Part shown: in pieces, positions 3,141-62,035 of the stretch
How positions within the stretch are numbered: position 1 is the stretch's first letter
How the letters are laid out: each line of letters opens with the position of its first letter
Assembly: GCA_045535075.1 (NCBI GenBank)
Contig: JAZSKX010000013.1
Location: 1-64,000, forward strand
DNA length: 64,000 nucleotides
Direction: 5' to 3'
Source: Candidatus Spyradenecus sp.
Lineage (GTDB): Bacteria > Verrucomicrobiota > Verrucomicrobiia > Opitutales > UBA953
The notes under the pieces: model-generated
Database searches by the model: none
The model's input: the letters and a program-made list of their open reading frames with translations, nothing else
What the model was told of the DNA's origin: nothing
Made by a program: the position numbers and the translations under genes

Positions 3141-3176
3141 AATAAAAAACGTTCCCGTAGGTGAGTACGGGAACGT
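3141..3176 (-). terminator. intrinsic terminator after OPT gene built from inverted CGGGAAC motifs
   Basis: ACGTTCCCGTA-ggtgag-TACGGGAACGT stem, TTTTTATT on minus strand. Confidence 0.75.
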
Positions 3177-3201
3177 CGGAGGTTTAAATCCGGTACCGGA
3201 A

Positions 3202-5304
3202 TTAGCTTCCGGAAGCGAGGATTGCCGTTGCCGCCATTGCTGCGAGTGCGCAGGCGATGGATTCGCCGCCGACCAAACCGGATGCGAGCGCGACCGAGTA
3301 GTTTTCTTCGCTTTTTTGGTGGAGCTTGTTCCAAAGCCAAATGCCGATCGCGCCGATTGCGAAGGATGCGGCATTGTTGAACGCAGCCGGAAGCGTCAGA
3401 ACAATCCCCATCCCCATGGCAGACGGCATATACGGGCGGAATTTCGGAAGGAGTTTTTCCAAAATCGGAATCGCGATGCCGATGATTGCGCCGATAGACA
3501 TTGCCCAGTAAACCGTCGTCGGGAGAGACATGGAGGCATCGTTCAAAAATTCGGCTACGGCTTTCCACATACGAGCGGGAGGCGCCGCGTAGTTTTCATC
3601 CAAAACTTTAGCGTTCGGGACGAGCAGTTTCCAAATCGGGTAGGCGATTATCGTTCCGATACAAATTGCGAGCAACTGCGTCCAGAATTGAATACGCGGT
3701 TTCAAGCCGAGCAGGTTTCCGAGTTTCATGTCGGACATGAGGTCGCCCGACGCGCCGCCGGCAGCTGCCGTTACGCCCCCGGTGATAAGATTTGTGCTGA
3801 CGTTCCCGCGTGCGCCCGGCATCACGGAATAAATGAGCTGGGAAATTTTCCCCATAGCTCCGATCGGATTCGTGTCGGCTTCGCCGCAGGAGCGCGCGCA
3901 AATTAAGCCGAACGCGCCCGCAAGAAAGATTGCGAGAACACCGAGATACCACGCCGTGTTAAACGCAAAGTGGAGCGTAACAATCAAGCCGATTGCCGAA
4001 GGAATTACACCGATGATAAACCATTTCATCGGGACTTCGACGTCGGCGACGGGATCGTCGGCGTTCGCGTTTTGCGCTGCGTTCTTGCCCGGGAAGAGCC
4101 CCGAAAACGCGCGTCCGATGGTGCGCCATTGGAATGCCAAGGCCGTAAAGCTCGACATCACCATGATAGCGGTTCCCATCCAAAGCGACCAGTAAACGAC
4201 GCGGAAGTTGCCGAATGTGCCGTCCGGATTTACGGTTACTTCAATATTGCGGAAGATGTCCGTTCCCGCGTTCAAAATATCCTGAGAAATCAGCCACGGT
4301 GCGATCACCCAGTCCAAGGCAATTGCCGTGAAGAACATCGTCAGCGAAACGCGCAATCCGCAGAGCATTCCCGCGCCGATGAGCAAAACGGACGCGTCGA
4401 GCGAAACGCCCGGAAGATTGGCTTTGTCGTCAACGATTGCTTTTACGCCTTTATCGGATACGACAGTTGATCCTTGGATGCCGCCCCAGATTTTGAGCGG
4501 GTTGAGGAAGGCGGGAAGGTCGATGACCTCCGGGATAAACGCAAGACGTGTGCAGAAATCGGAGATTTTTTCGCTGCCCGTTTCCTTGAACGCCGCCGCC
4601 AGTGTCGGAAGCTGTTTGATGATGCCGAGTACCGCTGCGAAGCCGAGCGCACTGAGGAGCGTGCGCACTTTATTTTTGGTGACGGCGCTTCCGCTATCCG
4701 CGTAGAGCGATTTCAGCGTTTCTGCGGAAGCGATTGCGCTCGGGAAGCGGAGACGCTCCTGATTGATGAGCGCGCGTTTCATGGGAACTGCGAGGCAGGT
4801 GCCGAGCATGGCGCTGAAAAACAGCGTCGGAACCATCTTATACCACGGCGCGGGGCCGACCAGTTCGGGCGCTAGCCCGGAAGTGCTGAGTTCCAAAAGC
4901 ATCAATGCCCCGAAGGCGGAGACGACGGTGTGCGTCGTTGTCATTCCCGTCACGGAAGCGACGGACGAGGTTGCCGCATTTTCCAAAACACCCATCGGCT
5001 TGATGCGACCGCCCGAGAGCGAGCGCATGGCGTTAAACACGACGAAAGAAAGGATAACTGCAACAAGGGCGATCCCGAAGCCCCAGCCGATTTTCAGCGA
5101 GGTGTACATGCTCGACGCGCACGCGAGAATCCCGATTAGCCCGCCGAAAATTGCGCCGCGGAGCGTCAATTGCGGTTCTTTATCCGCGCGGTAAATGTGC
5201 TTGCGCCAATAGGCATCGCGCTGTTCCGGCGGAATCCTGTCCAAAGCGAACACGGATGTATCGACTTCCGGTTCGATAGGGTTAGTAGTCTGATTTTTGC
5301 TCAT
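3202..5304 (-). CDS. OPT family oligopeptide transporter
   Basis: [53 protein letters not shown]; many TM segments. Confidence 0.9.
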
Positions 5305-5396
5305 AAGCCGCCCAATATGGCAGTTTTATCTTTCGGGGGCAAAAAGTTTTTTCAGGCAGTTTCGTGCATGACGTTCCCGCGAGGTACGTCGCATAC

Positions 5397-5442
5397 AAAA
5401 AATCCCGGAAGCGGCGGGCAATGCCGACTTCCGGGATTTTTT
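5397..5442 (-). terminator. intrinsic terminator after rpoD
   Basis: AAAAAATCCCGGAAG...CTTCCGGGATTTTTT inverted repeat 15 nt past the stop. Confidence 0.8.
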
Positions 5443-5456
5443 CAGAAGACACGAAA

Positions 5457-7646
5457 CTAAAGGAGTCCGTCTTCCTTGGCGAATTGATTGAAGCTCGGTC
5501 CCGAGACATCTTGGTCGCCGTTTTCGAAGAAGCCGTGGAGTTGGCGGAGGCGCACCGGATGGCGCATTTTCCGGAGAGCTTTGGCTTCAATTTGGCGGAT
5601 GCGTTCCCGCGTAACATTGAAGAGCTTTCCGACTTCTTCGAGGGTGCGTGAATAGCCGTCTTTCAGTCCGAAGCGGTAGATGAGAACTTCGCGTTCCCGT
5701 TCCGTCAGCGAATTGAGCACTTGGATGATTTTTTCACGGAGCAGGGCGGTAGCGGCAATGTCATAAGGATTTTCTGCCGCCTTGTCTTCGATGAAATCGC
5801 CGAAGCTTGTATCGTCGCCGTCGCCGACCGGGCTTTGGAGCGAAATCGGTTGTTGCGCCATTTTCATGATTTGTTGGACGCGTTCGACCGGCATTTGCAT
5901 TTCGTTCGCGACTTCTTCCGGCGTCGGTTCATGTCCGAGTTCCTGGAAAAGTTGCTTTTGAATTTGCATGACCTTGTTGAGAGTTTCGATCATGTGCACG
6001 GGAATGCGAATTGTGCGTGCCTGGTCGGCAATGGAGCGCGTGATTGCTTGGCGGATCCACCATGTTGCGTAAGTCGAAAACTTGTATCCGCGGCGGTACT
6101 CAAATTTTTCAACCGCTTTCATCAGCCCCATGTTACCTTCCTGAATGAGGTCGAGGAAGGAAAGTCCGCGGTTTGTGTATTTTTTTGCGATGGAAATGAC
6201 AAGCCGCAAGTTGGCTTCGACCATGTTTGTTTTCGCACGGTGGGCTTGTTGAAGGCAGGTGCGAACTTCTTTATAAATTTCCAAAATTTCTTCGCTCCCG
6301 ATGCGATATTGTTTTTCCAGCGCTTTGACCTTGCCGGTAATTTCCTTCGGGTCGAGTTTGCGTGCGTGGCGGTCCTTTCGCTCAATCAGATGGAGCTGAT
6401 AAACGTATTCGCGGAACGTGTCGATAATCGGCTTGAATGTTACCAACCATTCTTCGAGCACTTTCATTTTAAAGCAGAACTTGCGCAGAAGCGGGCGAAT
6501 GTCTTTTTGCAATTTAATAAAACGTGCGTACCCGCGGCGGCGCGTTTCTTCGTTGGACCCGCCGATGTATTCCATCCACGCTTTGTCGAGCTTGGCGGAA
6601 ATCGCTTCGACGGCGGCAATCGCCTTAGGAAGCATTTTGTAATAGGCGTCGCGGGATTCGACCTTTTTATCCAGGACGACGCGATCAAAACGCTCTTCAC
6701 GCGCATTGAGGCGGCGAGCGACTTCGAGTTGCGGCGCAAGGGTCAGCCAAATTGAGCAAAGCGCGTCCTGCGCTTTCGATTCCGCTTCTTCGATGCTCTT
6801 TGAAATTGAAATTTCCTGGTCTCGGTTCAAGAGCGGAACCTGTCCCATCTGGCGCAGATACATGCGAACCGGGTCGTCGAGAATGTCAACCTGTACGGAG
6901 CGCAAGGCTTCTTCTTCTTCCGTGCTCAGTTTTGTCTTGTACGCCGCGACATCTTCGTTTTCGAGAATTTTGATGTCGAGGTTGGCGAGAAGGTCGAGAA
7001 TCTTTTCAAAGGCTTCCGGCGACGAAGTCGTCGCGGGAATCGTGTTATTGATGTCCTCAATCGTGACGTAGCCCTGTTGGTTGGAGAGAGCACGCAGATC
7101 ATGCATGCGGGCGTTGATTTCATTTTGATCCATCGTCGCGATGACAGAGGAATCAAAATGTGTTTTTTCGGAAATTTCCCGGATTTTCTGTGCGTCTTCC
7201 CGTTGCTTTTTTTGCTGTTTGGCAAGCTCGGCAGAGCTCAGAACCGGCGAACGATCCGGCGCGTATTTAACTTCGCCGATAATCTTTTTCTCCGGTTTGG
7301 GAGCTTTTTCTTTCGGGGCAGGTGCCGGTTTTTTCGCCGGAGGCGTTTTCTTGGTTACCTTCTTTTTTGCGGGTGCCGCGGCGTTCTTAGGCGCGGGTTT
7401 CTTGGAAGCGGAAACCTTAGACGGAGCTTTTTTGCTAACCGGTTTCGCCGGAGCTTTTTTTGCGGGAACGGGCTTTTTCCCGACAGTTTTTTTCGCGGGA
7501 GCGACCGATTTCTTGGAAGATGCTTTGGGGGTCGCGGCTACTTTTGTAGCAACTTTGGATTTCGGAGCGGGGGCTTTTTTTGCGGGAACAGTTTTAGCGG
7601 GGGTGCGCGCGTTTGCCGCTTTTTTTACCTTTTTTTTATCTGCCAT
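5457..7646 (-). CDS. rpoD: primary sigma factor sigma-70
   Basis: [55 protein letters not shown]; downstream of dnaG. Confidence 0.97.
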
Positions 7647-7666
7647 GATGAGGTGGGTCGTATTGT

Positions 7667-9529
7667 TTATTTCTTATAAAGTCTTAGAGTGTTGCGCAAT
7701 TCTTTACTTCGCCGAAAAAGCTCAGCGAGTTGCGGATCTCCGGGAGCCAGGCGCGAGATTGCAGCGTCGATTTTCTGCTGTTCCCGTGCGCAATAATGTT
7801 CGCAGAGGCGGGCAATACATTGACGAGCCGTTTCTTCCGGGGAGGAAATGCGGCGGACGTGCATCGAAAGTTTGGCAACATAGGAGCGTTCTTCATCGCT
7901 TTCCAGAATTGCGGGAAGAGAATCTTTCGGATTTTTCCAATTACCTTCCGAATATTCCGCAATAATGCGGTTGAGAATGCGCCCTGCGGGACTTTTCGAA
8001 CAAATCCATTCCGGCAGAACGTCGTTCGCGAGTTGAGAGAGAAGCGCATCATATTGAAAAACAAAAATTAAGACATCCTCCTCAAGCGTTGTCAAGGGGA
8101 GGCTTGAGTGCGGAAGCGTGTTTCCGGCGCCTGCGGGAACGCCTTCCCGTTCAAGTTTCCGCGATTTTCTTTCATTCAAAAACCGCTGAAAATCACGTTC
8201 CAAATCTACGCGTTGCAAGCCTGAATATCGCGCAAGCTCCCACAGGCATTCCGTGCGGAAAACTCGTGAGCTTGCGGCGGATAAAATTTCGTAAATTTCA
8301 TTCAAGGCTTCTTGTTTTTGCACGGGTGTAAGCGACGCATTTCCGCCGAAATATCTTTCCGCAATGAAGGAAATCGCCGAGCGCTTGCTCGCAAAAATCG
8401 CTTCCGCTCCCGAAGGTCCGCGTTCGGAGAGAAATTCGTCCGGGTCTTTCCCGCCGGGAACGCTCAGGAAACGCAAATCCAAACCGGCTTCAAACGCAAG
8501 CGGGGCGAGGCGAATCGCCGCTTTTTGCCCGGCGGCATCCGCGTCAAGCAGGCAATTCAACTCATTGCTGTAGCGCGCCAACAATTGGAGTTGTTGTAGG
8601 GTGATTGACGTGCCTTGTCCGGCAACTGCCGTTTTGATTCCGTTGACGTAGCAACGGATTGCGTCCAGTTGACCTTCGACCAAAACAAAGGGAATTTCCC
8701 GCAGGTTGTGCCCCTTGTCCTTCTGCGTGCGATCCGTAAAGATTTCTTTTGCTTTGTCGATGTTGAAAAGTGTGTTGCCTTTTTTGAAAACTTCCGATTC
8801 CGAGGAATTTTTATACTTCGCGTCTTCCCAAGGAGTATCCGGCGTAATTCCCGGAATTTTTCGCGCCGTAAACGCGATGACGCGCCCTTGAATATCGCGA
8901 ATCGGAATAATCAGCCGCGACTCGAATTGAATACGGGATGCTTGCAACGGAACAGGCTTTTCCGGGCGACCGAACATCCCGGAGGCGAGGATACTTTGCT
9001 CCGAAAATCCCTTTTTTTTCAAGAGGTCAATCAGTTTGCGAGAGCCTCCTTTAGGGAGAAATCCGATGCCGAATTCCCGCGCGGTTGCTTCGTCGAAGCC
9101 GCGTTCTTGTGTCCAATAATTCCGAATTTCCCATGCGGCGGGAGCATGAAATTGTTCTTCAAAAAAGTGTGCGGCGAATTTGTTGATTTCAAAAAGCTCG
9201 TTGCGGATCGAGTGCTCGGCGTTCCCGTGAGTTTCGTATTCGACGGGAAGCCCGAAGCGCTGGGCAACGCGTTCGACGGCTTCGGGAAAAGTCAGATTTT
9301 CCCGCGTCATCAGAAATTTGAAAATGTCGCCCCCTTGTCCTGTGCTGAAGCAGTAGTAAAAACCTTTGTCGGGATCGACGAAAAACGAAGGCGTTTTTTC
9401 TGCAGTAAACGGGCTCAAGCCCTTCCAGCGCGAGCCGGAACGCGTCAGATTCGTATAGTCTCCGATTAGCGCGACAATATCTGCGCGGGAACGAATATCT
9501 TCAACGGATCTTTGTGAGATGAGCGGCAT
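7667..9529 (-). CDS. dnaG: DNA primase
   Basis: N-terminal Zn-finger-like domain ([20 protein letters not shown]), AKYKNS, TOPRIM LVEGQLD and LDADAAG, KDPDE. Confidence 0.95.
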
Positions 9530-13691: not shown

Positions 13692-13827
13692 AGATTTAAT
13701 TCCTTGTTGTTCGGTAGGAAAAACACCAAAGATAAATTTTGTTGAATTCGAGGTTTTTACTCGAAAGAGACCTGACCAGATCCCATACCCGGAGTCCTCG
13801 CTGAAAGGCGGGGGCTCCTCTTTTTTT
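13692..13827 (+). ncRNA. candidate small RNA ending in intrinsic terminator
   Basis: No plus-strand ORF in the track between promoter-like site and terminator GGAGTCCTCGC-tgaaag-GCGGGGGCTCC-TCTTTTTTT (13791-13827); internal hairpin TCGAG-gttttta-CTCGA. Confidence 0.4.
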
Positions 13828-13867
13828 GTTTGCGTCGGCGTGGGAACGCTCATAACTTTCCCGCAAG

Positions 13868-13963
13868 TTTTCAGTAAGGGGTGCCCGCGGGAACGTTTCC
13901 CGTCGGCTGAGATTATACCCGCGAACCTGATCCGGATAATGCCGGCGTAGGAAATGCTGAGGA
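13868..13963 (+). promoter_or_regulatory. TPP riboswitch
   Basis: GGGGTGC...GCTGAGA..ATACCC..GAACCTGATCCGGATAATGCCGGCGTAGGAA consensus upstream of thiamine genes. Confidence 0.96.
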
Positions 13964-14053
13964 AGTTTCGACCGTGTTGCGCGAACGAGTGTTCCCGCAC
14001 CGTGCGCTCTTTTGAAAACGAAAAAAATAACAGAAAGAGCAAAAAACATGGTT

Positions 14054-14821
14054 ATGGAAGAACAGATCTCGGGCGCAATCGTGCGTTCGTTTTTCAAAAA
14101 ACTCGAAAGCCGCCTCGCGGTGGACGTCGCCATCGTCGGCGCAGGACCGAGCGGACTCGTCGCCGCGCGCGACCTCGCAAAAGCCGGCTACAAAGTTGCA
14201 ATTTACGAAAGCAAACTCGCGCCCGGCGGCGGCGTTTGGGGCGGCGGAATGCTGATGAACGAAGTCGTCGTTCAAGACGACGCGGCAGAAATTCTCCGCG
14301 ATTTCGAAATTACGACCATTCCGTGCGGGAACGGGTTTCACACGGTCGATTCCGTTGAAATGGCGGCGGGGCTCATTTTCGGCGCGCGCAAAGCGGGAGC
14401 GGTGATTTTTAACACGGTCTGCGTCGAAGACATCGTCGTTCACAACGGCGTCATCGCGGGCGTTGTCATCAACTGGAATCCCGTGCGGCGGCTCGACATG
14501 CACGTCGATCCGATTGTCGTTACCGCGCGCGCCGTGGTAGACGGCACCGGGCATCCGAGCGAAATCGTCCGCAAAGCCGTCAACAAAGCCGGCGTTCAAA
14601 TCGATTCGCCGACGGGCGGCATTCTCGGCGAAAAACCCATGTGGATGGAAGACGGCGAACGCACGACCGTTGAAAACACGAAGCGGCTTTTCCCCGGGCT
14701 TTACGCTTCCGGCATGGCGGCAAACAACGTGCAGGGCGGCTTCCGCATGGGCCCGATTTTCGGCGGCATGCTTAAAAGCGGCCGCAAACTCGCGGGCATC
14801 ATCGCCGAAGATTTAAAATAA
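14054..14821 (+). CDS. thi4: sulfide-dependent thiazole synthase (Thi4 family)
   Basis: [24 protein letters not shown] (His, not Cys), RMGPIFGGM; start could also be ATG 14048. Confidence 0.93.
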
Positions 14822-14831
14822 AAGCTTAGGA

Positions 14832-14909
14832 GCTTAGAAGCTGAAAAGTTTGGCAGCTTCGCAAGAAATATTTCTCGCCGAAGGCGGCTAAGCTTTTCAG
14901 CTTTTAAGC
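14832..14909. repeat. long imperfect palindrome between thi4 and thiE
   Basis: GCTTAGAAGCTGAAAAGTTTGGCAGCTTCG...CGAAGGCGGCTAAGCTTTTCAGCTTTTAAGC with self-complementary AGAAAT/ATTTCT centre. Confidence 0.75.
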
Positions 14910-14932
14910 ACTTTAACTTCTTTTTCCTTTTT

Positions 14933-15556
14933 ATGAAAAATTTCGGACTTTATCTCGTTATCACCGATCCCGCGACAAGCTACGAAACCTGCGCGGAAGC
15001 CGCCGTGCGCGCCGGCGTGCGCTTCGTCCAGCTGCGCATGAAACACACGCCGCGGGAACGCATCGTCGCAACCGCGAAAAATCTCCGCGCAATCACGGCG
15101 GGAACGCCGACGCTTTTCATCGTCAACGACGATCCCGAAATCGCCGCCGAAACCGGAGCCGACGGCGTGCATCTCGGGCAAAGCGACTTGCCGATTCCCG
15201 TCGCACGGGAACGCTTTCCCTCGCTGAAAATTTTCGGGCTCTCCACGCATTCGCTCACACAGGTCGAAGCCGCGTGCAAACTCGCGCCGGATTACATCGG
15301 CGTAGGCCCCGTTTACGCGACGCCGACCAAGGAAATCCCCGACGCAACGCTCGGGCTTGAAACCATGCAAAAAATGATTGCCGCCGCGCACGTTCCCGCC
15401 GTTGCCATCGGTGGTATCGACGCATTCCGCCTGCCGGACGTCCTGCGCGCGGGAGCGCGAAACTTCGCCGTCGTCCGCGCCGTCTGCCGCGCCTCCGACC
15501 CCTACGCCGCCATCCGCCGCCTACAGGAAACCCGGGAACGCACAATTCCGGATTAA
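14933..15556 (+). CDS. thiE: thiamine phosphate synthase
   Basis: VQLRMK, FIVNDD, GVHLGQSD, GLSTHS, GPVYATPTK, VAIGGI. Confidence 0.95.
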   Translation: MKNFGLYLVITDPATSYETCAEAAVRAGVRFVQLRMKHTPRERIVATAKNLRAITAGTPTLFIVNDDPEIAAETGADGVHLGQSDLPIPVARERFPSLKIFGLSTHSLTQVEAACKLAPDYIGVGPVYATPTKEIPDATLGLETMQKMIAAAHVPAVAIGGIDAFRLPDVLRAGARNFAVVRAVCRASDPYAAIRRLQETRERTIPD

Positions 15557-15910
15557 CGTTAGGAGCTCTTACGTTCGGCGGATGTGTTACCGTCGGCGCT
15601 AAAAATTCGTTTTGAGGAAATCGATGAGAGTTGGGGGCTGAGAGCTTAGAGGCAAATGCGTTCCCGCAAGCGGAAAAAAGGTCTTCGAAATCCGTTTTCG
15701 TGAAGCGAGGCGCAAATACCTATCATCTCTCAGCGCTCCTCGCTCGTCAGAAACTCTATTTATAGAACTCCCCTTAGATTGGCAAGGTATACATTCCTTC
15801 GTCCATGCGCGTTTCTCCCCAAATCTCTTTTCCTTTTGAAAAATCCCGTCAAAAGGCATTCAATTTCCGGCAGTAAAATTATATCTCACAAAATTCCGCT
15901 TCCCGCATCT

Positions 15911-18766
15911 ATGCCTTTGTCTTGGAACGAAATCCGCCAACGTGCCATCAAGTTTTCCCGCGAATGGGAAGGTGAAGCGCGAGAATCCGCCGAATACGCT
16001 TCTTTTTGGAACGACTTTTTCGACGTTTTCGGAATTCGCCGCCGCACCGTCGCTTCTTTTCAGGAGCCCGTCAGAAAACTTTCCGGCGACTACGGCTTCA
16101 TCGATTTATTTTGGAAAGGCACCGTGCTCGTCGAGCATAAATCTCTCGGAAAAAGTTTCGACAAAGCCGAATGCCAAGCCTTTGACTACATTCAGGCTCT
16201 CTGCAATGAAGGTCGTGAAGAGGAATGTCCGCGCTACGTCATTCTATCCGATTACAAACGAATAAAACTTTTCGATCTCGAACCCGACGATTGCGCACTC
16301 CCGCTCGTCGACAAAACACACTGCGCCGAATACGAATTCGAGCTTAGGGATTTTCACAAAAACGTTCACCTCTTCGCCTTCATTCCGGGCTACAAGCAGT
16401 ATCGTCACCACGACGAAGCGCCCGTAAATCTCAAAGCGGTAAAACTTCTCAGCGACCTGCACATCGAACTCGAAAAGTCCGGATACGGCGGGCACGATCT
16501 CGAAGTCTTCCTCGTTCGCATCCTGTTCTGTTTTTTTGCGGATGATACCGGAATCTTTGAGCGCGATTCCTTCAAGCTTTACATCGAAAACAAAACACAC
16601 GAGGACGGCTCCGATCTCGGCATGCGCCTTGCCCGCCTTTTCCAGCTTTTAAATACGCCGCCGGAAAAACGCCAAGCCAACCTCGACGAAGACCTCGCCG
16701 CGTTCCCGTATGTCAACGGCGGCCTTTTTGCCGAGAACCTAAACTTCGCCGACCTCAATCGCACCATGCGGGAACGCCTCCTGCGATGCGCAAATTTCGA
16801 CTGGGCTGCGATTTCGCCCGCAGCCTTCGGCTCGCTTTTCCAAGGCATCATGGATGCCAAAACTCGCCGTGAACTTGGCGCCCACTACACCTCCGAAGCC
16901 GACATCCTAAAACTCATCCGTCCGCTTTTCCTCGACGAGCTCCGCGCCGAATTTGAGGCAGCCAAAAACGACCGCTCTTCCCGCAGAAAACAACGCTTGG
17001 AAAAATTACTCGCCAAACTCCCGACGTTGACGTTTTTCGATCCTGCTTGCGGTTGCGGAAACTTCCTCATCATTGCCTATCGAGAACTTCGCCTACTCGA
17101 AATTGATATTTTAAAAGAATTATTTGCACGGGAGAGAGCATCAAGTGAAAAGACTCTTGGTTTTAAATTTTCGTCAAAATCAGGAACAACTCCAAGTCGT
17201 GTTGATGTTGACCAATTTTACGGAATCGAGCTCGAAGAATGGCCCGCACGCATCGCCGAAGTTTCCCTTTGGCTGATGGACCACAAAATGAATCAGGAAC
17301 TCTCGCTGATTTTCGGGGAACTCTATGTGCGCATCCCGCTTAAAAAATCACCCAACATCCATGTCGGGAACGCACTCACAAACGATTGGAAAACAATTAT
17401 TCTTCCCGAGAAATGTTCCTACATTTTAGGAAATCCGCCGTTCGCGGGCTCCAAATTTCAGAGCAAAGGACAACGGGAAGAAATTGATGCCGCTTTCGAG
17501 GGAAAGACCAAGAGCGGAATTTTGGATTATGTTTCCGGCTGGTATGCAAAAGCGGCAGAATTTATCGCGGGAACGAAAATTCGGGTTGGATTTGTATCTA
17601 CAAATTCCATTACGCAGGGCGAACAAGTTGATGCGCTCTGGGGATTTTTGTTTCAAAAGGGAATCAAAATTCACTTCGCCTATCGCACCTTTTCTTGGCA
17701 AAGCGAAGCAAGCGGGAAAGCGCACGTTCACGTCGTAATCGTTGGGTTCGGATTTGAAGATGTTCCCGTGAAAACAATTTATGAAATTGCCGATTCGGCG
17801 GGAACGACTTCTTCTTACAACGCAAAAAATATCAACGGATATTTGATTGATGCCTCAAACATTTCGTTACCTAATCGCTCAAAACCGATTTGCAACGTTC
17901 CCGAAATCGGAATCGGAAATAAACCGATTGACGGCGGGAATTACCTTTTTACCGACGAAGAAAAAACGGCGTTTTTAGAAAAAGAACCTTCTGCCGAAAA
18001 ATATTTTCGAAAATGGTATGGTTCGGACGAATTTATTAACGGCTGGCACCGTTGGTGTCTGTGGCTTGGGGATTGTCCTCCCGGCGAATTGAGGAAAATG
18101 CCGGAATGTATGAAGCGCGTTGAAGCCGTAAGAAAGCTTCGACTCGAAAGCAAGAGCAAGCCGACCAACCACCTTGCGGAAACGCCGACACGCTTTCACG
18201 TCGAAAACATGCCTGCGGGAACGTTTATCGTTATTCCGGAAGTTTCTTCCGAAAGACGTGATTACGTTCCGATCGGCTTTTTCAGTCCGGATGTTTTGTG
18301 CAGTAATTTGGTGAAAATCATTCCCGATGCGACGCTTTATCATTTCGGTATTTTGACTTCGACGATGCACAACGCGTGGATGCGTCAGGTTTGCGGACGT
18401 CTCGAAAGCAGGTATCGCTATTCGGCGGGAATTGTTTACAACAACTTCATTTGGCCGTCGGGCGTTCCCGCGAAAGCTCGCGAAAAAATCGAAAACCTTG
18501 CGCAGAAAATTTTGGATGTGCGCAAAATCTACATCGACGGGCAAGGCAGTTCCCTCGCCGATTTGTATGACCCGCTCACAATGCCCGGTGATTTGCTCCG
18601 CGCTCACCGTGAGCTCGACAAAGCCGTTGACAAACTCTACCGCAAAGAACCCTTCACCTCCGAGCGCGAACGCGTCGAATTCCTTTTCGCCCTCTACGAA
18701 TCCGCCGCTACCCCACTCGCTCCTGCGACACCAAAACTTTCTCCCCGCAAACGGAAAACACAGTAG
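15911..18766 (+). CDS. MmeI-family type IIL restriction-modification enzyme (endonuclease + N6-adenine MTase + TRD)
   Basis: Start revised to MPLSWNEI (ATG 15911); PD-(D/E)xK-like FIDLF..LVEHKS, YVNGGLF, GAHYTS, FFDPACGCGNFL, GNPPF, TNSITQGEQV, GRLESRYRYS, LADLYDP. Confidence 0.93.
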   Translation: MPLSWNEIRQRAIKFSREWEGEARESAEYASFWNDFFDVFGIRRRTVASFQEPVRKLSGDYGFIDLFWKGTVLVEHKSLGKSFDKAECQAFDYIQALCNEGREEECPRYVILSDYKRIKLFDLEPDDCALPLVDKTHCAEYEFELRDFHKNVHLFAFIPGYKQYRHHDEAPVNLKAVKLLSDLHIELEKSGYGGHDLEVFLVRILFCFFADDTGIFERDSFKLYIENKTHEDGSDLGMRLARLFQLLNTPPEKRQANLDEDLAAFPYVNGGLFAENLNFADLNRTMRERLLRCANFDWAAISPAAFGSLFQGIMDAKTRRELGAHYTSEADILKLIRPLFLDELRAEFEAAKNDRSSRRKQRLEKLLAKLPTLTFFDPACGCGNFLIIAYRELRLLEIDILKELFARERASSEKTLGFKFSSKSGTTPSRVDVDQFYGIELEEWPARIAEVSLWLMDHKMNQELSLIFGELYVRIPLKKSPNIHVGNALTNDWKTIILPEKCSYILGNPPFAGSKFQSKGQREEIDAAFEGKTKSGILDYVSGWYAKAAEFIAGTKIRVGFVSTNSITQGEQVDALWGFLFQKGIKIHFAYRTFSWQSEASGKAHVHVVIVGFGFEDVPVKTIYEIADSAGTTSSYNAKNINGYLIDASNISLPNRSKPICNVPEIGIGNKPIDGGNYLFTDEEKTAFLEKEPSAEKYFRKWYGSDEFINGWHRWCLWLGDCPPGELRKMPECMKRVEAVRKLRLESKSKPTNHLAETPTRFHVENMPAGTFIVIPEVSSERRDYVPIGFFSPDVLCSNLVKIIPDATLYHFGILTSTMHNAWMRQVCGRLESRYRYSAGIVYNNFIWPSGVPAKAREKIENLAQKILDVRKIYIDGQGSSLADLYDPLTMPGDLLRAHRELDKAVDKLYRKEPFTSERERVEFLFALYESAATPLAPATPKLSPRKRKTQ

Positions 18767-18778
18767 AGAAAAATTGCT

Positions 18779-21592: not shown

Positions 21593-21605
21593 AATTTAAA
21601 TCATT

Positions 21606-22229: not shown

Positions 22230-22410
22230 CTGTTTGCCATTCCGGAAAAGGATTTTTTGGAATTCTTTTTTCAGGTAAAACAGGCGTTGAAGGCATGCAA
22301 ACGAGCTAAACGAGCCTCCGCCCTGGAGAGATATTAGATACCACGCTGCGGAACGATCAATTTGCACTCTACGTTCACGCGGAAGCGATTCCTTCGTCCC
22401 AAGGCATTGT

Positions 22411-22497
22411 TGCGCTTTTCAAGCGCATATCTCTCGTCGGTGTTCCCGCAGGTAGCTTACGCCACCTGCGGTTATTTTTGTTCGGCTTTTTAAGCCG
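22411..22497. repeat. REP-like triple hairpin
   Basis: TGCGCTT-ttc-AAGCGCA, CCGCAGGT-10 nt-ACCTGCGG, CGGCTT-ttt-AAGCCG. Confidence 0.6.
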
Positions 22498-39074: not shown

Positions 39075-39078
39075 GATT

Positions 39079-42035: not shown

Positions 42036-42080
42036 ATAAAAAGCGTTCCCGCGATTCTCTTTCACGGGAACGCTTTTTAT
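42036..42080 (+). terminator. intrinsic terminator built from inverted CGGGAAC motifs
   Basis: ATAAAAAGCGTTCCCGCGA-ttctctt-TCACGGGAACGCTTTTTAT. Confidence 0.85.
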
Positions 42081-42130
42081 TCTGAAAAACTCTTTGGACA
42101 ATACCTTATGAGAGGAGTTTAATTTCGCGT

Positions 42131-45147: not shown

Positions 45148-45813
45148 ATGAAAGCTTTATCCCCTGTTTCAAAACGGAAGGCATTTACACTCGTCGAAGT
45201 CTTGGTCGTTGTCGGCGTTATTGCGATTCTTGCCGCAGTTACCGTCGGGCTTTTGGGTCCGGTGGAAAACGCAATCAGAACATCGAATGCGAAAGCGCAA
45301 TGCGACAAGATTTCCATGGCGGTGGAGGACTTTAAATCGACTTATGGCGAGTATCCGATGCTTGAAGATTCGGGCGATCAGGAAGATTGGGAAAAATTGC
45401 TCATGGATTCGATGCGCGGCGACAAAATCCTCGTACGAAAGGGCGGGAAAATGCAGCTCATCGATTTTGATGACGGGAAATCGGATGCCGAACGCCGCCC
45501 GTTTTTGGAACTCAGTGAATTTTCGTTTGATAGTGAAGATGTCGATTCCGCCACTAAAATTCTCGACCCGTGGGAAAACCCGTGGCAATACCGCTACAAT
45601 GTAATTTCAGGCGGCAAACTCGGGAAGAATTGGTTCGGTCCGACGTTCATTCTAATCTCCGCCGGACCGGAATACGAAGATCCCGTGGGAACCGATGACT
45701 TCTTTACCGGCGATTTGGAAGAAGAAGGGGTGCCGGATTTGGACCCGGACGGAGACGACTACTACTTTGCCGACATCCGCGCCGACAATATTACGAACTT
45801 TGGTGCGAAATAA
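45148..45813 (+). CDS. prepilin-type N-methylation domain protein (pseudopilin-like)
   Basis: Start revised to ATG 45148; RKA|FTLVEVLVVVGVIAILAA, DPWENPWQY, LISAGP. Confidence 0.85.
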   Translation: MKALSPVSKRKAFTLVEVLVVVGVIAILAAVTVGLLGPVENAIRTSNAKAQCDKISMAVEDFKSTYGEYPMLEDSGDQEDWEKLLMDSMRGDKILVRKGGKMQLIDFDDGKSDAERRPFLELSEFSFDSEDVDSATKILDPWENPWQYRYNVISGGKLGKNWFGPTFILISAGPEYEDPVGTDDFFTGDLEEEGVPDLDPDGDDYYFADIRADNITNFGAK

Positions 45814-48279: not shown

Positions 48280-48351
48280 CCGATTTTCATGTTTCCCGTG
48301 GGAGCTGATTTATGATTTCATAACCCGAAAACTTTTTTAATTCTTCTAACC

Positions 48352-49824
48352 ATGAAATACATTTCCACGCGCGGACTCGCGCCCGAAGTTTCCTCAACCG
48401 AAGCACTTCTAAACGGTATCGCACCCGACGGCGGGCTTTACGTTCCCGCCGAAATTCCCTCTAAAAGTGCGCTCCCGAACTGGCTCGAAGCCGATTGCGA
48501 TTACGCGGGAACGATGCGCAAACTCCTCGCGCTGTTTTTTGACGATATTCCCGAAAATGTGCGCAACGCCGCCGTCGAACGCTCTGTTGCGCGCTTCGCA
48601 AATCCCGCCGTTCCCGTGCCGTTTAATCCGGTTTGCGACAACGTCGTTTTCATGGACTTGGCACAGGGCCCGACCGCCGCGTTTAAGGACGTTGCGCTGA
48701 CGATTTTGCCGACGCTCTTGCAATACGCCGCAGAGCAGGCGGGACTGAAAAAAGCCGCAATCCTCACGGCGACGAGCGGAGACACCGGCTCGGCGGCGAT
48801 GCGCGGCTTCGCGGATGTCGCGGGAACGGAAGTGCTCGTGTTTTTCCCGAAGACGGGAACGTCCGAAATTCAGCGTCGCCAAATGGTTTGTTGCGAGGGC
48901 GGGAACGTGCATGCCTGCGCCATCGAAGGCAATTTCGACGACGCGCAGGCAGGCGTGAAAACCGTTTTCGCTGATGAAAAAATCCGCGCCGATGCCGCCG
49001 CCAAGGGAATTTTCCTTTCCAGCGCCAATTCGATTAATATCGGGCGCCTGTTCCCGCAGGTTTGCTACTACATTATGGCGTGGCGGCAACTGCATTTCTC
49101 CTGCATTCTCGGCGACGAAGGCTTTGATGTTGTCGTGCCGACGGGGAATTTCGGAAACATTCTTGCGGCGTTTTACGCGAAAAAACTCGGCGCGCCGATT
49201 CGCCGTTTCATCGTCGCGTCGAACGAAAACAACGTCGTTGCCGAATTCATCAAAACCGGAGTTTACGACACGCATCGCGCGTTCAAAATCACCAATTCGC
49301 CCTCAATGGACATTTTGGTTTCGTCGAATATCGAGCGTTTTATTTTTGAAATTTCCGGGCGCGATTCCGCGTGGACGCGCGAAAGCATGGCGTCGCTCAA
49401 AGCGAGCGGCGTGTTCCGTTTTGACGACGAAAAACGCCGCGCGGCGGAAGACGCCGGCTTTGATTCGGGCTTTGCGACGATGACGGAAACCGAAGCGGCG
49501 ATTGCGGAAATTCACCGCGATGCGAATTATTTTGCGGACCCGCACACGGCGATCGGCTGGAAAGTTCTGCGCGAACTCGGCAATCGCGGAAGCGTTCCCG
49601 CCGTCATTGCGGAAACGGCGGCTCCGTGGAAATTCCCGGCGACAATGCTGCGCGCGCTCACGGGAACCTGCGGGAATGACGATTTTGAAAATCTGAAAAA
49701 ACTCGGCGAGATTATCGGGCAAACGCCTCGCTTTGCCGAGCTTGAAACCGCTCCCGTGCGCCACGATTTGGTTTGCGCGAAAAACCGTGTCGGCAACGCC
49801 GTCCGCTCCGTTTTCGGGATTTAG
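48352..49824 (+). CDS. thrC: threonine synthase
   Basis: MKYISTRG, DGGLYVP, GPTAAFKD, ATSGDTG, SANSINIGR, VPTGNFGN. Confidence 0.95.
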   Translation: MKYISTRGLAPEVSSTEALLNGIAPDGGLYVPAEIPSKSALPNWLEADCDYAGTMRKLLALFFDDIPENVRNAAVERSVARFANPAVPVPFNPVCDNVVFMDLAQGPTAAFKDVALTILPTLLQYAAEQAGLKKAAILTATSGDTGSAAMRGFADVAGTEVLVFFPKTGTSEIQRRQMVCCEGGNVHACAIEGNFDDAQAGVKTVFADEKIRADAAAKGIFLSSANSINIGRLFPQVCYYIMAWRQLHFSCILGDEGFDVVVPTGNFGNILAAFYAKKLGAPIRRFIVASNENNVVAEFIKTGVYDTHRAFKITNSPSMDILVSSNIERFIFEISGRDSAWTRESMASLKASGVFRFDDEKRRAAEDAGFDSGFATMTETEAAIAEIHRDANYFADPHTAIGWKVLRELGNRGSVPAVIAETAAPWKFPATMLRALTGTCGNDDFENLKKLGEIIGQTPRFAELETAPVRHDLVCAKNRVGNAVRSVFGI

Positions 49825-50043
49825 AGATTCCCTCGCGGGGCGCGGCGTTGCTGGGCGGCGCGGGAACGTAAAACGATAAATTTCCGAGGCAAGTTTTTAG
49901 AACGGCGGAAAACGTTTTTTGATACTCGGTGTGGTTGTGTCTCTGCAAGAGAAAATCGGAAGCGCCGCTGAAGCGTGCCGAAATAAATCAAATCGAAAAA
50001 AAAGCATTGCGGAAAACCTCGCCGAGCTTAAAAAGATGACTTA

Positions 50044-51501
50044 ATGAAATCAGATGCTTCAAAAGCTTTTCCCGTAGCAACGGAAGCGTTGAAAAATGCG
50101 CTTGGGGGCGAGGCGGTTCGAACGGACGCCGAAGCGCTTTTTGCCGCGTCGTTCGACAATACGAAACTTTCGTTTTTGCCGGAAGCCGTCGTGTTTCCGC
50201 GCGACGAAAATGATATTGCGACGACACTAAAACTTGCCTATGCGCACGGCGTTCCCGTGACGGTGCGCGGCGCGGGAAGCGGAACGACAGGCGCAGCGGC
50301 GCCGGTTTGCGGCGGCTGGGTTGTTTCACTTGCGCATTGGACGAAGTGTGAGATTGATGCCGATTCTGCCTTGGCGCTTGTCGAGCCGGGTGTTGTTACG
50401 CAGGCGATTTCCGACGCGGCGCGGGAACACGGGCTTTTTTATCCGCCGGATCCCGCAAGCGTAAAACATTGCACAATCGGCGGAAACATCGCCACGAATG
50501 CCGGCGGCCTGCGGGCGGCAAAATACGGAGTAACGCGCGATTACGTCGTCGCACTCGAAGGATTTTTACCGACGGGCGAAAAAGTGCGTTGGGGCGGCAA
50601 GGTCAAAAAATTTGTCAGCGGCTACAATCTGCGCGATTTATGGGTCGGAGCGGAAGGCACGCTCGGCATTATCACGCGGGCCGTTTTGCGCTTGGAGCCG
50701 ATTCCCGAGGCTCGCCATACGTTTTTGTGTATGTTTGCGGGCGATGCGAGCGGCTTGCGCGCGTCGCAGGCGCTTCTGCGGGAACGCGTTAATCCGTCGG
50801 TTTTGGAATTTATGGACGCGCTTTCCGTGCGTTGCGCCTTAGAAGAAAAGGGCGAGACGATTTCGGGAATTGAGTGCGGCGATTCGGTTTTACTGGTGGA
50901 GATTGACGGTTCCCGTGCCGAGCTTGAGCCTGCAATCGAAAAAGTTCGCGCTTGGGCAAAAAAATATGCGCGTGTATTTCGCGAAACTTCCGATTCCGCC
51001 GAAGCCGAAAAACTTTGGGAAATCCGCCGCGCCTGCTCGCCGGCGATGTTCCGTTTGGCAAATTCAAAATTAAACGAAGACATCGTTGTTCCGCTTGAAA
51101 ATTACATCCCGCTTTTTGACGCAATGCGCGACATAACGCGTGAAACCGGTTTGCAAACGCCGATTTTCGGGCATGCCGCCGACGGCAATTTTCACGTTCA
51201 CATTATGTACAATCGCGAAAATCCGCGGGAACGCGATTTAGCGCAGAAAGCAATTTTTCGGGTAATGAAATCCGTTGTCGATTTAGGCGGCGTCATTACG
51301 GGAGAGCACGGAATCGGCTTGGCAAAATCGCCGTTTTTGGCGCTTCAGCACACGCCGGCGGAAATCGAGGCGATGCGCGCCGTCAAAAAAGCGCTCGACC
51401 CGAAAAACATTCTCGGACGCGGAAAAATATTTGAAGCGTTCAATGTTTGGAACTGCGAACCGGTTTCCGTCAAATTACCTTGGGATCGGAAAAAAGCTTA
51501 A
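50044..51501 (+). CDS. FAD-linked oxidase, GlcD/D-lactate dehydrogenase family
   Basis: YPPDPAS, TIGGNIATNAGG, KYGVTRDYV, GHAADGNFH, GEHGIG. Confidence 0.9.
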   Translation: MKSDASKAFPVATEALKNALGGEAVRTDAEALFAASFDNTKLSFLPEAVVFPRDENDIATTLKLAYAHGVPVTVRGAGSGTTGAAAPVCGGWVVSLAHWTKCEIDADSALALVEPGVVTQAISDAAREHGLFYPPDPASVKHCTIGGNIATNAGGLRAAKYGVTRDYVVALEGFLPTGEKVRWGGKVKKFVSGYNLRDLWVGAEGTLGIITRAVLRLEPIPEARHTFLCMFAGDASGLRASQALLRERVNPSVLEFMDALSVRCALEEKGETISGIECGDSVLLVEIDGSRAELEPAIEKVRAWAKKYARVFRETSDSAEAEKLWEIRRACSPAMFRLANSKLNEDIVVPLENYIPLFDAMRDITRETGLQTPIFGHAADGNFHVHIMYNRENPRERDLAQKAIFRVMKSVVDLGGVITGEHGIGLAKSPFLALQHTPAEIEAMRAVKKALDPKNILGRGKIFEAFNVWNCEPVSVKLPWDRKKA

Positions 51502-51532
51502 TTTCGCAAGGGCAAAAGGAAGTCGGAAATCA

Positions 51533-52297
51533 ATGAATCCATTTAGAAATTTCGCACTTCCTTTTCTCTTTTATTGGTTTCGCGGCGTACTTGATGTCGT
51601 GTTCCCGCGTTCGTGCGTCATTACGGGCAAGGCGCTGGAAGAAGGAGAGTTAAGCTACATTTGCGAAGAAGGAGCCAAACTTCTCTATTGCATCCACGCG
51701 GCAAGCGCATGCCCGCGATGCGGCGCTTTTCTCGGCGAAAATCCGGCAACGAAGAACATTTGTCCGAACTGCATCAATCGCGGGAACGAAGACTTGCAAA
51801 TTGGGCGCTCCCGCAGCGTCGTCTGCTTAGACAGCTTTTCGCGTCCGATTGTTTTTTCCCTGAAATATTGGAAACTTCCGTCGATCGCCCGCGATATGGC
51901 TGTTCTGGCAACGCGCTCCCGCGGATTTGTTGAATATTTGCAAGACGCGATTCTTGTGCCGGTACCGCTTTGCAAAAAGCGTCTGCGTTCCCGCGGATAC
52001 AACCAGAGCTTGTGCTTGGCTAAAGCGCTTGCAGCCGTTTCCTCCGGAACTTGCGTGGCGGATGTTCTTGAACGCACACGCGACACGGGAACGCAGACGC
52101 ATTTGGATGCGGAAGCACGCAGGGAAAATGTTCGCGGAGCATTTGTCGCTAAGGGGAACTTTACGGCGAATCCTAAAAAGCGTTATATTCTGATCGACGA
52201 TGTTTTTACAACGGGATCGACGCTTTCCGAGTGCGCCGTTGCGTTACGACGTCGCGGAGCCGTCAGAGTCGACGCCGCGACGTTTGCTCACGGATAG
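51533..52297 (+). CDS. comF: ComF family protein
   Basis: Start revised to ATG 51533; Cys pairs, LVPVPL..RGYNQS, LIDDVFTTGSTL. Confidence 0.9.
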   Translation: MNPFRNFALPFLFYWFRGVLDVVFPRSCVITGKALEEGELSYICEEGAKLLYCIHAASACPRCGAFLGENPATKNICPNCINRGNEDLQIGRSRSVVCLDSFSRPIVFSLKYWKLPSIARDMAVLATRSRGFVEYLQDAILVPVPLCKKRLRSRGYNQSLCLAKALAAVSSGTCVADVLERTRDTGTQTHLDAEARRENVRGAFVAKGNFTANPKKRYILIDDVFTTGSTLSECAVALRRRGAVRVDAATFAHG

Positions 52298-60027: not shown

Positions 60028-60037
60028 TGGAATGAAG

Positions 60038-60868
60038 CTAAATGCTTCCTTGCGGGAACGCAAATTGATTCAGGCGGGGAACACAGGCGAGCAGGGCGCG
60101 CGTGTATGCGTGTTGCGGGTGAGCAATGAGCTCGCGAGCCGGGCCTTCCTCGAGTTTTTCTCCCCGATAAAAAACGCAAACGCGATCGGCTATCTCGGAG
60201 ACAATGCCGAAATTATGCGTGATGAGTAAAATGCTCATGCCGAAGCGTTCCCGCAAATCGAGCAACAAATTCATGATTTGCTTTTGAATCGTCACGTCAA
60301 GCGCGGTCGTCGGTTCGTCGGCAATGAGAATTTTCGGATTCGCGGCAAGCGCCATTGCAATCATGACGCGTTGCTGCATACCGCCGGAAAACTCATGCGG
60401 GAACGCGCTCGCCAATTCCGGACGAATACCGACGGCATCAAGTACTTCCGCAACGCGCGCGCGGCGTTCCCGCGACGGCATTCCCGGAAGATGAATTTTC
60501 ATCATCTCTTCGATTTGAAAACCGACGGAGTAAGTCGGGTTCAACGAACTGAGCGGATCTTGGAAGATATAGGCGATTTCTTTACCGCGAACCTTGCGTA
60601 AATCGCGTTCCCGCAAGCCGATCAGCTCTTTCCCTCCAAGCAAAGCGCTCCCGCGGATTTGACAGGTCGGAGCTTCCGGAAGCAACCCCGTTAGCGCCTG
60701 CGAAGTTACGGATTTCCCGCTCCCGCTTTCGCCGACAATCGCAAGAATTTCGCCTTTATTCAGAAAAAAGGAAATATTGCGGACGACCGGCGAAACTTTT
60801 CCGCGGGAACAAAAATCCACGCACAAGTCGCGAACAGACAAAAGCGGAGTTTTACCTTCTTTGAGCAC
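60038..60868 (-). CDS. oligopeptide/dipeptide ABC transporter ATPase (OppD-like)
   Basis: GESGSGKS, FSGGMQQR, IADEPTTALD, ITHN, HAYT. Confidence 0.93.
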   Translation of the reverse strand: MLKEGKTPLLSVRDLCVDFCSRGKVSPVVRNISFFLNKGEILAIVGESGSGKSVTSQALTGLLPEAPTCQIRGSALLGGKELIGLRERDLRKVRGKEIAYIFQDPLSSLNPTYSVGFQIEEMMKIHLPGMPSRERRARVAEVLDAVGIRPELASAFPHEFSGGMQQRVMIAMALAANPKILIADEPTTALDVTIQKQIMNLLLDLRERFGMSILLITHNFGIVSEIADRVCVFYRGEKLEEGPARELIAHPQHAYTRALLACVPRLNQFAFPQGSI

Positions 60869-60907
60869 AGCCCCTTTAATCTTTTTACTTTAATCTCTAA
60901 TCTTCCT

Positions 60908-61939
60908 TTACTCGACGGCAAGCATCAGCGAACTCAAGCCGCTTCCGATTCCGAGCAGAGCGATTTTGTCGCCGTTGCGAATAGCGCCGGCTTCGCGCGC
61001 AAGCGTGAGCGTCGCGGGAAGCGAAACCGAGCCGACGTTGCCGAGTCGATCAAAGCTTTGCCAATCCTTGGAGCGGTCGAGCCCGAGTTTTTCAAAGAGA
61101 GCCGCCGTGTGGCGTACGCCGACCTGATGCGTAATGATGCGCGCCGGCGTATTTTCGTCCCATCCGGTTTCTTTTTTGAAATCCTCCCAAGCACGTGCCG
61201 CAAGTGAGATTCCGGCTTCGAGAAGCTTTTCCGAATCGGTTTGCATGGCAAGTGCGTTCCCGCTTGTGTCGCCTTCGCAGAGGCGATTCGCTTCGGAGTC
61301 CGTTGCGACAATGCCGCCGGTCAAATGCGGCGTCCCCGCGGGAACGAGCGAATCATGCGCAAGAATTGCGGCAACCGCTCCCGCGCCGATAGTCAGGTTC
61401 GCAAAATAAGGTTTAACGGAATTGCGCGTAAGCGACGTGTCGGCGTTGAGTTTGGCAATCGTATTTTCAACGAGCGGACGCCCGTTCTCGCCGGAACAAA
61501 TCAGCGCGCGACGAATTTGTCCGGATTCGATTAAGCCGGCGGCAACGACCATCGCGTTGAGGAAACCGAGGCAGGCATTCGAGACATCGAAAATCTGCGT
61601 GCGCTGCGTTAGCCCGAGCAAACCGTGCAGATAAGCCGCCGTCGACGGTTCCAGACGATCGCGGCAAACGGACGAGTGAATCAGCAAGTCGATATCTTCG
61701 GGGCGAGTTCCCGCACGTTGCATGACTTTTTTTCCCGCGAGCGCCGAGGCTTCGGACGGGCGAATCGCGTGCGCCCAAAAACGTCGCTCCCGAATGCCCG
61801 TCATCAACTCAAGGCGTCCGTAGGGCAATTTCAAACGTTCGTAAACGGGAGCCAGTTTTTGTTCCAAGTCCGCTGAAGTCCAAACTTCGGGCGGCAATTC
61901 GACTGCCATTTGCTCGATGGCGACGTGTGAAAATCGCAT
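60908..61939 (-). CDS. OleA-like 3-oxoacyl-ACP synthase III / thiolase
   Basis: LELMTGIRERRFW, RDRLEPSTA, DVSNACLG, THQVG, GNVGSVSLP, LLGIGSGL. Confidence 0.85.
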   Translation of the reverse strand: MRFSHVAIEQMAVELPPEVWTSADLEQKLAPVYERLKLPYGRLELMTGIRERRFWAHAIRPSEASALAGKKVMQRAGTRPEDIDLLIHSSVCRDRLEPSTAAYLHGLLGLTQRTQIFDVSNACLGFLNAMVVAAGLIESGQIRRALICSGENGRPLVENTIAKLNADTSLTRNSVKPYFANLTIGAGAVAAILAHDSLVPAGTPHLTGGIVATDSEANRLCEGDTSGNALAMQTDSEKLLEAGISLAARAWEDFKKETGWDENTPARIITHQVGVRHTAALFEKLGLDRSKDWQSFDRLGNVGSVSLPATLTLAREAGAIRNGDKIALLGIGSGLSSLMLAVE

Positions 61940-62035
61940 AGTGAAAAACTCCGATTAGCGTTCGTTCCCGCCGGAAATCCGAACGGGAACGCGTGAAGCT
62001 TTCTTTAGTCTCTAATCTTTAATCCCGGGCACTTT

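Follow-up and report, generated by a model that had tools for sequence, protein, structure and literature searches.

Why should the terminators of one bacterial genome be built, again and again, from two facing copies of the same word, and what keeps that word there? The question arises from 64,000 nucleotides of Candidatus Spyradenecus sp. (assembly GCA_045535075.1, contig JAZSKX010000013.1, positions 1 to 64,000; the window), in which an initial annotation had marked six stems of the form GTTCCYG…CGGGAAC, read them as terminators and counted them as support for a DNA-uptake sequence. We examined the window together with its 1.95 Mb source genome (G000) and a series of comparison genomes (other G-numbers); genes and terminators were called with simple scripts, and absolute fractions are therefore approximate. 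Our reading, to which we give a probability of roughly 60%, is that the stems are terminators made of facing copies of RCGGGAACG and that this word is likely an uptake tag favoured by a surface receptor in natural transformation. Taken separately, the first half, that a genome-wide word has been co-opted to form the stems as predicted intrinsic terminators, is very probable from the sequence comparisons reported here; the second, that the word is a DNA-uptake tag, we consider reasonably probable.

All six annotated stems are present, with predicted folding energies of -16 to -28 kcal/mol, and five of them have the form of intrinsic terminators, a GC-rich hairpin that comes shortly after a stop codon and runs into a U-tract on the same strand as the gene before it. 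The predicted terminator at 3149-3176 (minus strand; cores 3151-3157 and 3168-3174) lies 26 nt past the stop of an OPT-family transporter gene (3202-5304, minus strand), its tail appearing as an A-run just left of 3149, and an exact matching pair stands at the orthologous place in G013. Two stems are predicted to terminate in both directions: 25965-26005 (cores 25970-25976 and 25989-25995), between the convergent pckA (24119-25936, plus) and hemW-like (26061-27242, minus) genes, and 28124-28164, between a racemase gene (27298-28125, plus) and a glutamine-amidotransferase-like gene (28183-30093, minus), where the left arm GTTCCTG (28133-28139) faces CGGGAAC (28152-28158) with a G·U pair on the plus strand. 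Both remaining tailed stems are predicted terminators on the plus strand, one at 37739-37774 (cores 37741-37747 and 37760-37766), 21 nt after a methylmalonyl-CoA mutase gene (35549-37717), for which G013 has a motif-free orthologous hairpin with compensatory changes, and one at 42036-42080 (cores 42045-42051 and 42065-42071), after trpB (40768-41988) and with A- and T-tracts on both sides. The sixth stem, 61963-61991 (minus strand; cores 61964-61970 and 61984-61990), 45 nt after frr (62036-62593, minus), has no U-tract on either strand; it is likely a degenerate terminator, because a pair with a T-tract occupies the same place in 9 of 17 close-relative loci. After pckA, the hairpin is an exact pair in 7 of 16 readable congener loci, retains one arm in 6 and is motif-eroded in 3.

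Most of the annotated detail survives inspection. The extended form CGTTCCCG(T/C)GA…TC(G/A)CGGGAACG, ascribed to three stems, was seen at 25965, 37739 and 42036; the T-tails are real for five stems, that of 3149-3176 being on the minus strand, and the sixth is tail-less as described. The statement that GTTCCCG always comes first on the plus strand fails as a property of the strand, the pair reading alike on both, and stands as a bias in order over CGGGAAC-first. A motif-blind caller found five distinct terminators in the window, all five of them motif pairs. A generic terminator scanner run over 24000-43000 returned 36 terminator-like sites against 39.1 in shuffles, so its count is not discriminating; its longest stems are two of the six. 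As a separate observation, a heptameric repeat (AAAGCTT/AAAGATT/AGAGCTT-like units) stands just past stop codons, often ahead of a terminator (25939-25960, 27250-27285, 60877-60898, 14821 and 1601-1647), and is extended into longer tandem arrays in G013 and its relatives.

Across the genome, terminators were called without use of the motif behind 1,053 gene ends having gaps of at least 30 nt. The 335 distinct predicted terminators comprise 128 exact GTTCCCG-first pairs, 21 near pairs, 7 pairs in the reverse order (3 exact), 31 with a single copy and 148 with none. That motif stems might be no commoner than motif density predicts, a possibility raised with the initial annotation, is contradicted by the same 128 pairs, since only 10.9 motif-bearing arms are expected from length- and GC-matched genome segments. 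Of the 335, 178 (53%) contain one or more exact 7-mers and 162 the exact 8-mer, and the density of the motif is 26.3/kb inside terminators as against 2.7-3.5/kb elsewhere. At spacers of 3-25 nt there are 207 GTTCCCG-first pairs where density predicts 125.6, and 65 in the other order; at a spacer of 12 alone there are 58 (5.5 expected).

The position and strand of the pairs follow transcription. Exact pairs occur in 58 of 159 gaps between convergent genes, in 91 of 735 between tandem genes and in 3 of 202 between divergent genes (Fisher p 2e-20). A T-run is found on the plus strand in 40 of 50 pairs between plus-strand genes, on the minus strand in 38 of 45 between minus-strand genes, and on both strands in 44 of 63 between convergent genes. 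Stem mismatches on the transcribed strand are G·U in 70 cases and A·C in 21 (p 2.5e-7), and the structure that matters would therefore be an RNA hairpin, not a DNA cruciform. In four of nine listed public runs, available as assembled contigs only and with the RNA runs from one study, RNA contigs end near the hairpins, as do contigs of a probable DNA run.

The terminators are a small part of the distribution of the word. Its core, CGGGAAC/GTTCCCG, occurs in 212 exact copies in the window (between 185 and 63842, on both strands; consensus yyRCGGGAACGc), mostly single and inside genes. The genome has 6,528 copies (3.35/kb), of which 5,557 (85%) fall within genes and 5,159 are the 8-mer CGGGAACG, 2,527 forward and 2,632 reverse. 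The word is enriched in 19 of 19 genomes of the genus (Ca. Spyradosoma, Opitutales; uncultured gut Verrucomicrobia) and in none of six from sister genera; 8-mer counts are 552-7,777 in the 18 other genus genomes, 79-224 in the six sister-genus genomes and no higher than those of control words in 16 genomes from other families. It is 8.6-fold over synonymous shuffles and enriched 3.3-10.4-fold in all six frames, and it leaves an imprint on the proteome, the tripeptides AGT and VPA being raised about 5-fold. What maintains the word at synonymous sites, whatever the frame or strand, is a force acting at the level of DNA.

Copies are spaced slightly evenly (1-kb variance 2.47, mean 2.66). The word falls to 0.75 and 0.72/kb in two Mu-like phage regions and is also low in restriction islands, in the reverse-transcriptase gene of the window and in the rpoB-tuf region. 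The word-poor phage regions are a Mu-like prophage at C16:184000-220000 (Gam, terminase, Mu portal, Dam-like gene) and a phage-like remnant at C8:21000-33500. No replication-strand bias was seen (54.9%, against 55.2% for words of the same composition), where a Chi- or KOPS-like element (KOPS, FtsK-orienting polar sequences) would show a strong one, as GGGNAGGG does at 122:8 in the same genome. That word and GAGCAGGG (118:6) are separate polar words of the leading strand, found for example at window positions 576, 3128 and 5741; they are KOPS-like. The GC skew flips near C2:66,300, just past the window.

What the cell needs and what the force imprints can be separated in lineages where the word is decaying. 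Trees of PckA with ComEC, and of ComEC alone, place the word-poor G001, G002 and G013 (about 1,350 copies) as sisters of the source genome inside motif-rich clades, and the word-poor G014 (552 copies) on a separate branch; PckA itself moves between clades, and the ComEC tree and PilT identities therefore carry the weight. Two separate lineages have thus lost about 75-90% of the word and kept their competence genes. Each of these four genomes has 11 pilin-like genes, the extra ones resembling a GspG-J cluster in G001; two motif-rich genomes also have 10-11. The G013 comparison covers 1.74 of about 2.1 Mb of that genome and 1.0 Mb of aligned coding DNA. At sites with unchanged amino acids, 687 of 791 G013 copies (87%) are kept in G000 and 687 of 2,010 G000 copies are kept in G013; ten control words are kept symmetrically at 13-61%, and four-fold sites are 53% identical. 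Given this asymmetry and the symmetry of the controls, the sequences indicate that G000 has held the word and that G013 is losing it. A new dialect of the word in G013 was considered and rejected, the same word still being its top 8-mer, and faster evolution of ComEC was not seen in the motif-poor clade.

The terminators of G013 lose the word and keep the fold. Among 102 gene ends with a pair terminator in G000 and a strict orthologue (coverage filter), the pair is still exact in G013 in 32 cases and reduced to a single copy in 11; 37 carry a hairpin free of the word, and 22 lack a called terminator. A further 21 stems are unrelated; across the 57 that could be aligned, 36 of 399 pair positions have changed, 17 by compensatory substitution and 15 to G·U, with 4 broken. 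Termination would thus require that the hairpin pair, with the sequence supplied by a genome-wide force and fading along with it. This bears directly on the claim of the initial annotation that the terminators support uptake independently of the counts, which is not supported: where the word decays across the genome the terminators part with it and retain their hairpins, and the pairs are therefore not independent proof of uptake. They show that the word has been co-opted, not what reads it.

Among tailed pairs, GTTCCCG-first outnumbers the reverse order by 154:6 in G000 and by 70:3 in G013; other congener loci, 390 kb in all, give 30:4. Two explanations of the order were discarded: a general preference for a G-rich 3' arm, as 100 non-motif terminators have 281 C-G and 272 G-C pairs; and an A/T-rich extended motif, as the word has no A/T-rich flank. 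A third, that GTTCCCG-first is preferred because the strong CGC abuts the U-tract and the tolerant YYR end faces the loop, is weakly supported, CGC being the commonest stem end among non-motif terminators at the low count of 14 of 134. The spacer-12 peak (54 of 154 in G000) is weak in G013 (14 of 70) and absent from the other loci (3 of 30), and a fixed 12-nt spacer as a helical-phase constraint was rejected since the spacing is not conserved across G013 and those loci. Overlap-free palindromes with a spacer of 0, GTTCCCGCGGGAAC, number 21 in G000, with about 5 expected, and 13 of them are in genes.

How might the word have come to occupy the stems? The pairs closely follow stop codons and have their U-tracts on the strand that is transcribed, and the comparison with G013 identifies the RNA hairpin as the conserved entity, from which the word is lost through compensatory change. 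A stem need only pair, and could hence be the freest place for the DNA-acting force to write the word, two copies at once, by way of G·U intermediates; the arrangement with CGC beside the U-tract would then win. The force itself would be biased uptake and homologous recombination through a type IV pilus, ComEC and DprA. Such a process would also explain gene-sized alleles common to word-carrying species.

Alleles of that kind are present in the window. Five tracts of 1.5-3 kb, covering core genes and matching five different contigs, show 96-99% identity to the distant congener G016, against 68-80% in the rest of its matches; together they make up about 10 of the 59 kb searched. They comprise lpxA/lpxC-fabZ (70-3062), a thiamine pyrophosphate (TPP) riboswitch with thi4 and thiE (13824-15606), pckA (24018-25976, plus strand; 98.6% to G016, 98.4% to G007 and 96.9% to G010, ending at motif copies at 24028 and 25970-25976), the amidotransferase-like gene (28124-30144, minus strand; 99%, including the entire 28124-28164 hairpin) and thrC (48351-49827). 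The riboswitch before thi4 (13867-13971) has a copy of the word in a variable stem (13888), and another copy lies at 13991. Beyond the window, pckA of G012 is 99% identical to those of G004 and G018, which are of different clades. The motif-poor G001, G002, G013 and G014 reach at most 94% at pckA with any congener, identity to G013 at the tract genes is 80-92% where read, and a 15-kb stretch of G013 has no match above 84% in 15 genomes. The pattern suggests recent gene-sized exchange of core genes between species, as transformation would give; the tracts do not prove the route.

The word resembles the DNA uptake sequences (DUS) and uptake signal sequences (USS) of other bacteria in being non-palindromic and present in thousands on both strands, in forming inverted pairs that serve as terminators in a preferred order, and in being depleted in acquired DNA, imprinted on the proteome and kept at synonymous sites. 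The competence machinery is also there, as necessary context only: each of 25 genomes has intact ComEC, DprA and PilT, the secretin is found in 5 of 5, and G000 has in addition PilM, a secretin, PilB/PilC-like, ComF and ComM-like genes. In the window, a ComF-family gene (51431-52297, plus strand; below its curated cut-off) adds to this context, and a type IV pilin-like gene (45169-45813, plus strand), one of seven in the genome, has an acidic head and is not ComP-like. The known receptors, ComEA/ComE and a minor pilin of the ComP type (ComN, predicted), were not found. The word thus appears to work like a DUS or USS, and its membership of that class, by function and with the known receptor absent, is putative.

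Several results weigh against an uptake tag. ComEC, DprA and PilT are equally present in motif-free sister genera and in motif-poor lineages and so do not track the word. No ComP-like protein was found among the seven pilins of G000, six of which have acidic heads and none more than two cysteines, and ComEA (TIGR00426) passed its cut-off in 0 of 5 genomes; the receptor may be non-homologous to ComP. A small pilin of 128-136 aa (C5:99026-99451, L086:7027-7452), present in 19 of 19 genus genomes, 0 of 6 sister-genus genomes and weakly in 1 of 16 genomes of the order, is predicted to have a pilin fold and gave no structural match at E<=0.001, only FimU at E 0.02; as a reader it is unsupported, being kept in motif-poor genomes and lacking a basic head, and its genus-limited range is uninformative because fast-evolving pilins would show such a pattern anyway. 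A reader lost in G013 was sought among 1,616 called G000 proteins, of which 1,128 have an orthologue in the 1.74 Mb compared, with 28 syntenic gaps listed; the 38 proteins scanned contain no convincing DNA-binding or competence candidate, many gaps being unresolved. Unlike DUS and USS, the word has no A/T-rich extension (T is only 1.03-1.06-fold after it), has a length of just 8-9 nt and shows no depletion in genes. Motif-rich G003, G009 and G018 share no such tract with the window; tract ends fall within 20 nt of a motif in 3 of 10 cases (15% by chance, not significant); and the tracts could derive from other transfer routes or chimeric bins, the samples being small and a shared host a possible confounder.

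The strongest alternative makes the word the target of a DNA-binding protein in the cytoplasm and not an uptake tag, with the stems again co-opted as terminators. The protein might organise the nucleoid, or might act in recombination or repair and favour word-carrying donor DNA once this has entered the cell. This alternative would fit every DNA-level result, the failure to find ComP and ComEA and the slightly even spacing of copies. The cyanobacterial HIP1 (highly iterated palindrome 1) reaches a density of order 3/kb, like the word here. A role in chromosome structure is discussed for HIP1 in the accessible text of PMC5861425. We nevertheless hold this alternative unlikely, if clearly the least so of the four considered: the word is non-palindromic, no candidate gene was found, the unconserved spacer-12 peak leaves no fixed dimer geometry, and exchange of alleles between species does not follow from it alone.

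A second alternative, which we regard as improbable, is that the word accumulates by a repair bias coupled to a methyltransferase, as proposed for HIP1, or marks a phosphorothioate site, terminators acquiring it passively. MmeI-family enzymes read short asymmetric sites. The word contains GAAC, and the window encodes such an enzyme (15779-18766); HIP1, moreover, is linked to orphan methylases in what is accessible of PMC4390886. The MmeI-like gene was rejected as the driver of the word on account of its patchy distribution: only 9 of the 19 genomes of the genus have it, and several of those richest in the word do not. The N6/N4 family PF01555 is absent from G000, G004 and G006, the C5 family is present in 10 of 19, and the other candidates of G000 are a type I HsdM, the prophage Dam-like gene and probable RNA or protein methylases; no methyltransferase family tracking the word was found. 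For phosphorothioation, DndD passed its cut-off in 0 of 5 genomes, with no search for Ssp-type systems. The MmeI-family gene, a type IIL enzyme, belongs to a defence island (15779-23988) with a Drt4-like reverse transcriptase (937 aa, below cut-off, 39% GC, no motif, with a long C-terminal part outside any family), a T5orf172/MUG113 nuclease-like gene and an HTH-Panacea antitoxin gene.

Still less credible is a signal in RNA, read at 3' ends by, for example, a nuclease or termination factor and having terminators as its primary home. The 8-fold higher density in terminators would suit it, as would the decay in G013, which keeps about half of its tailed pairs (40 against 77 per Mb) where single copies are down to under a third; slower decay of paired arms is expected anyway, tailed pairs account for no more than 4.6% of copies, genes retain the word in either orientation, and stems lose it by compensatory change. 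Least tenable, and refuted by the flanks and by the orthologous hairpins, is the small repetitive extragenic palindromic (REP)-like family that the initial annotation had allowed for, with single copies as its debris: although the pairs are intergenic inverted repeats with a modal spacer of 12, three near-identical copies occur in two tandem clusters and Y1 transposases are present in 3 of 5 genomes, 154 of 161 intergenic-pair spacers are distinct, flank identity (0.317 and 0.316) is that of random intergenic DNA (0.314), copies lie mostly in genes and pairs avoid divergent gaps, the two Y1 genes of G000 are flanked by unrelated palindromes, two of the richest motif genomes have no Y1 gene, and the hairpins after pckA and frr stay in place across species with different loops.

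Returning to the uptake tag, its nearest counterpart is in Neisseria, where DUS-pair terminators (GCCGTCTGAA…TTCAGACGGC) likewise account for about half of intrinsic terminators, lie mostly in convergent gaps and prefer one order. The accessible text of PMC1852404 gives about 55% of Neisseria terminators with DUS and an order of 226:5, in quantitative agreement with the 53% and 154:6 seen here; that order is explained there by the A-rich end of the extended word, and 17-29% of Pasteurellaceae terminators with USS. DUS is similarly depleted in recently acquired DNA and leaves a tripeptide imprint on the proteome; it differs from the present word in sequence and phylum, the present word being about three times denser and 85% in genes, with no A/T-rich extension to account for the order and no ComP, and a different terminator caller was used. 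The USS of Pasteurellaceae (AAGTGCGGT) is likewise a short core on both strands, mostly in genes and co-opted into terminators; the word here has no long A/T-rich flanks, a higher terminator share and a stronger order bias. HIP1 (GCGATCGC) is, in the accessible text of PMC5861425, an extremely abundant octamer that is maintained at synonymous sites whatever the frame, and that text has 0 occurrences of 'terminator'; HIP1 is palindromic and tied to methylases, whereas the word here is asymmetric, has no co-distributed genus-wide methylase and enters terminators only as pairs. REP elements and their associated tyrosine transposases (RAYT) also give intergenic stem-loops after genes, yet such elements share loops and flanks, are mostly extragenic and have palindromes beside the Y1 gene, and the word pairs have no shared loops or flanks, most copies being single and coding. 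A terminator stem motif of Staphylococcus epidermidis is likewise a recurring stem sequence of unexplained function, described in the accessible part of PMC13714241 as variable and stem-associated, in contrast to a word that saturates the whole genome.

In the accessible portions of four reports (PMC2817400, PMC2397512, bioRxiv 10.1101/2025.10.24.684340, PMC13714241), proteome imprint, depletion in acquired DNA and terminator use are described for Neisseriaceae and Pasteurellaceae only, and we found nothing on RCGGGAACG or on uptake sequences of Verrucomicrobiota among the matches listed, subscription papers being mostly outside coverage. New here are the statistics on terminators, the comparison with a lineage losing the word, and the tracts shared between species. 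It is about an even bet that RCGGGAACG is a third independently evolved uptake sequence, with no precedent outside Proteobacteria and a density above that of any known one, and with a receptor unrelated to ComP, that lets species swap housekeeping genes. If so, a genus-wide word would let species differing by a quarter of their DNA exchange such genes, about one-sixth of the window being near-identical to a distant congener, and would have reshaped four in ten terminators. By themselves the terminators are a by-product to be expected, and their value lies in reading out the word-enriching force. The two decaying lineages would then be a natural experiment for finding the reader and, by separating the hairpin that the cell needs from the word that the drive imprints, for testing molecular drive against selection. 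A convergent case in Verrucomicrobiota would show that genome saturation, proteome imprint and fixed-order terminator co-option form a general outcome of sequence-biased DNA exchange.

Two further features were noted. A signal recognition particle (SRP) RNA lies at 40564-40661 of the window, and words containing GGCC are strongly depleted in genes (GCGGCC, for example, occurs 277 times where 1,878 are expected), which suggests long avoidance of a restriction site.

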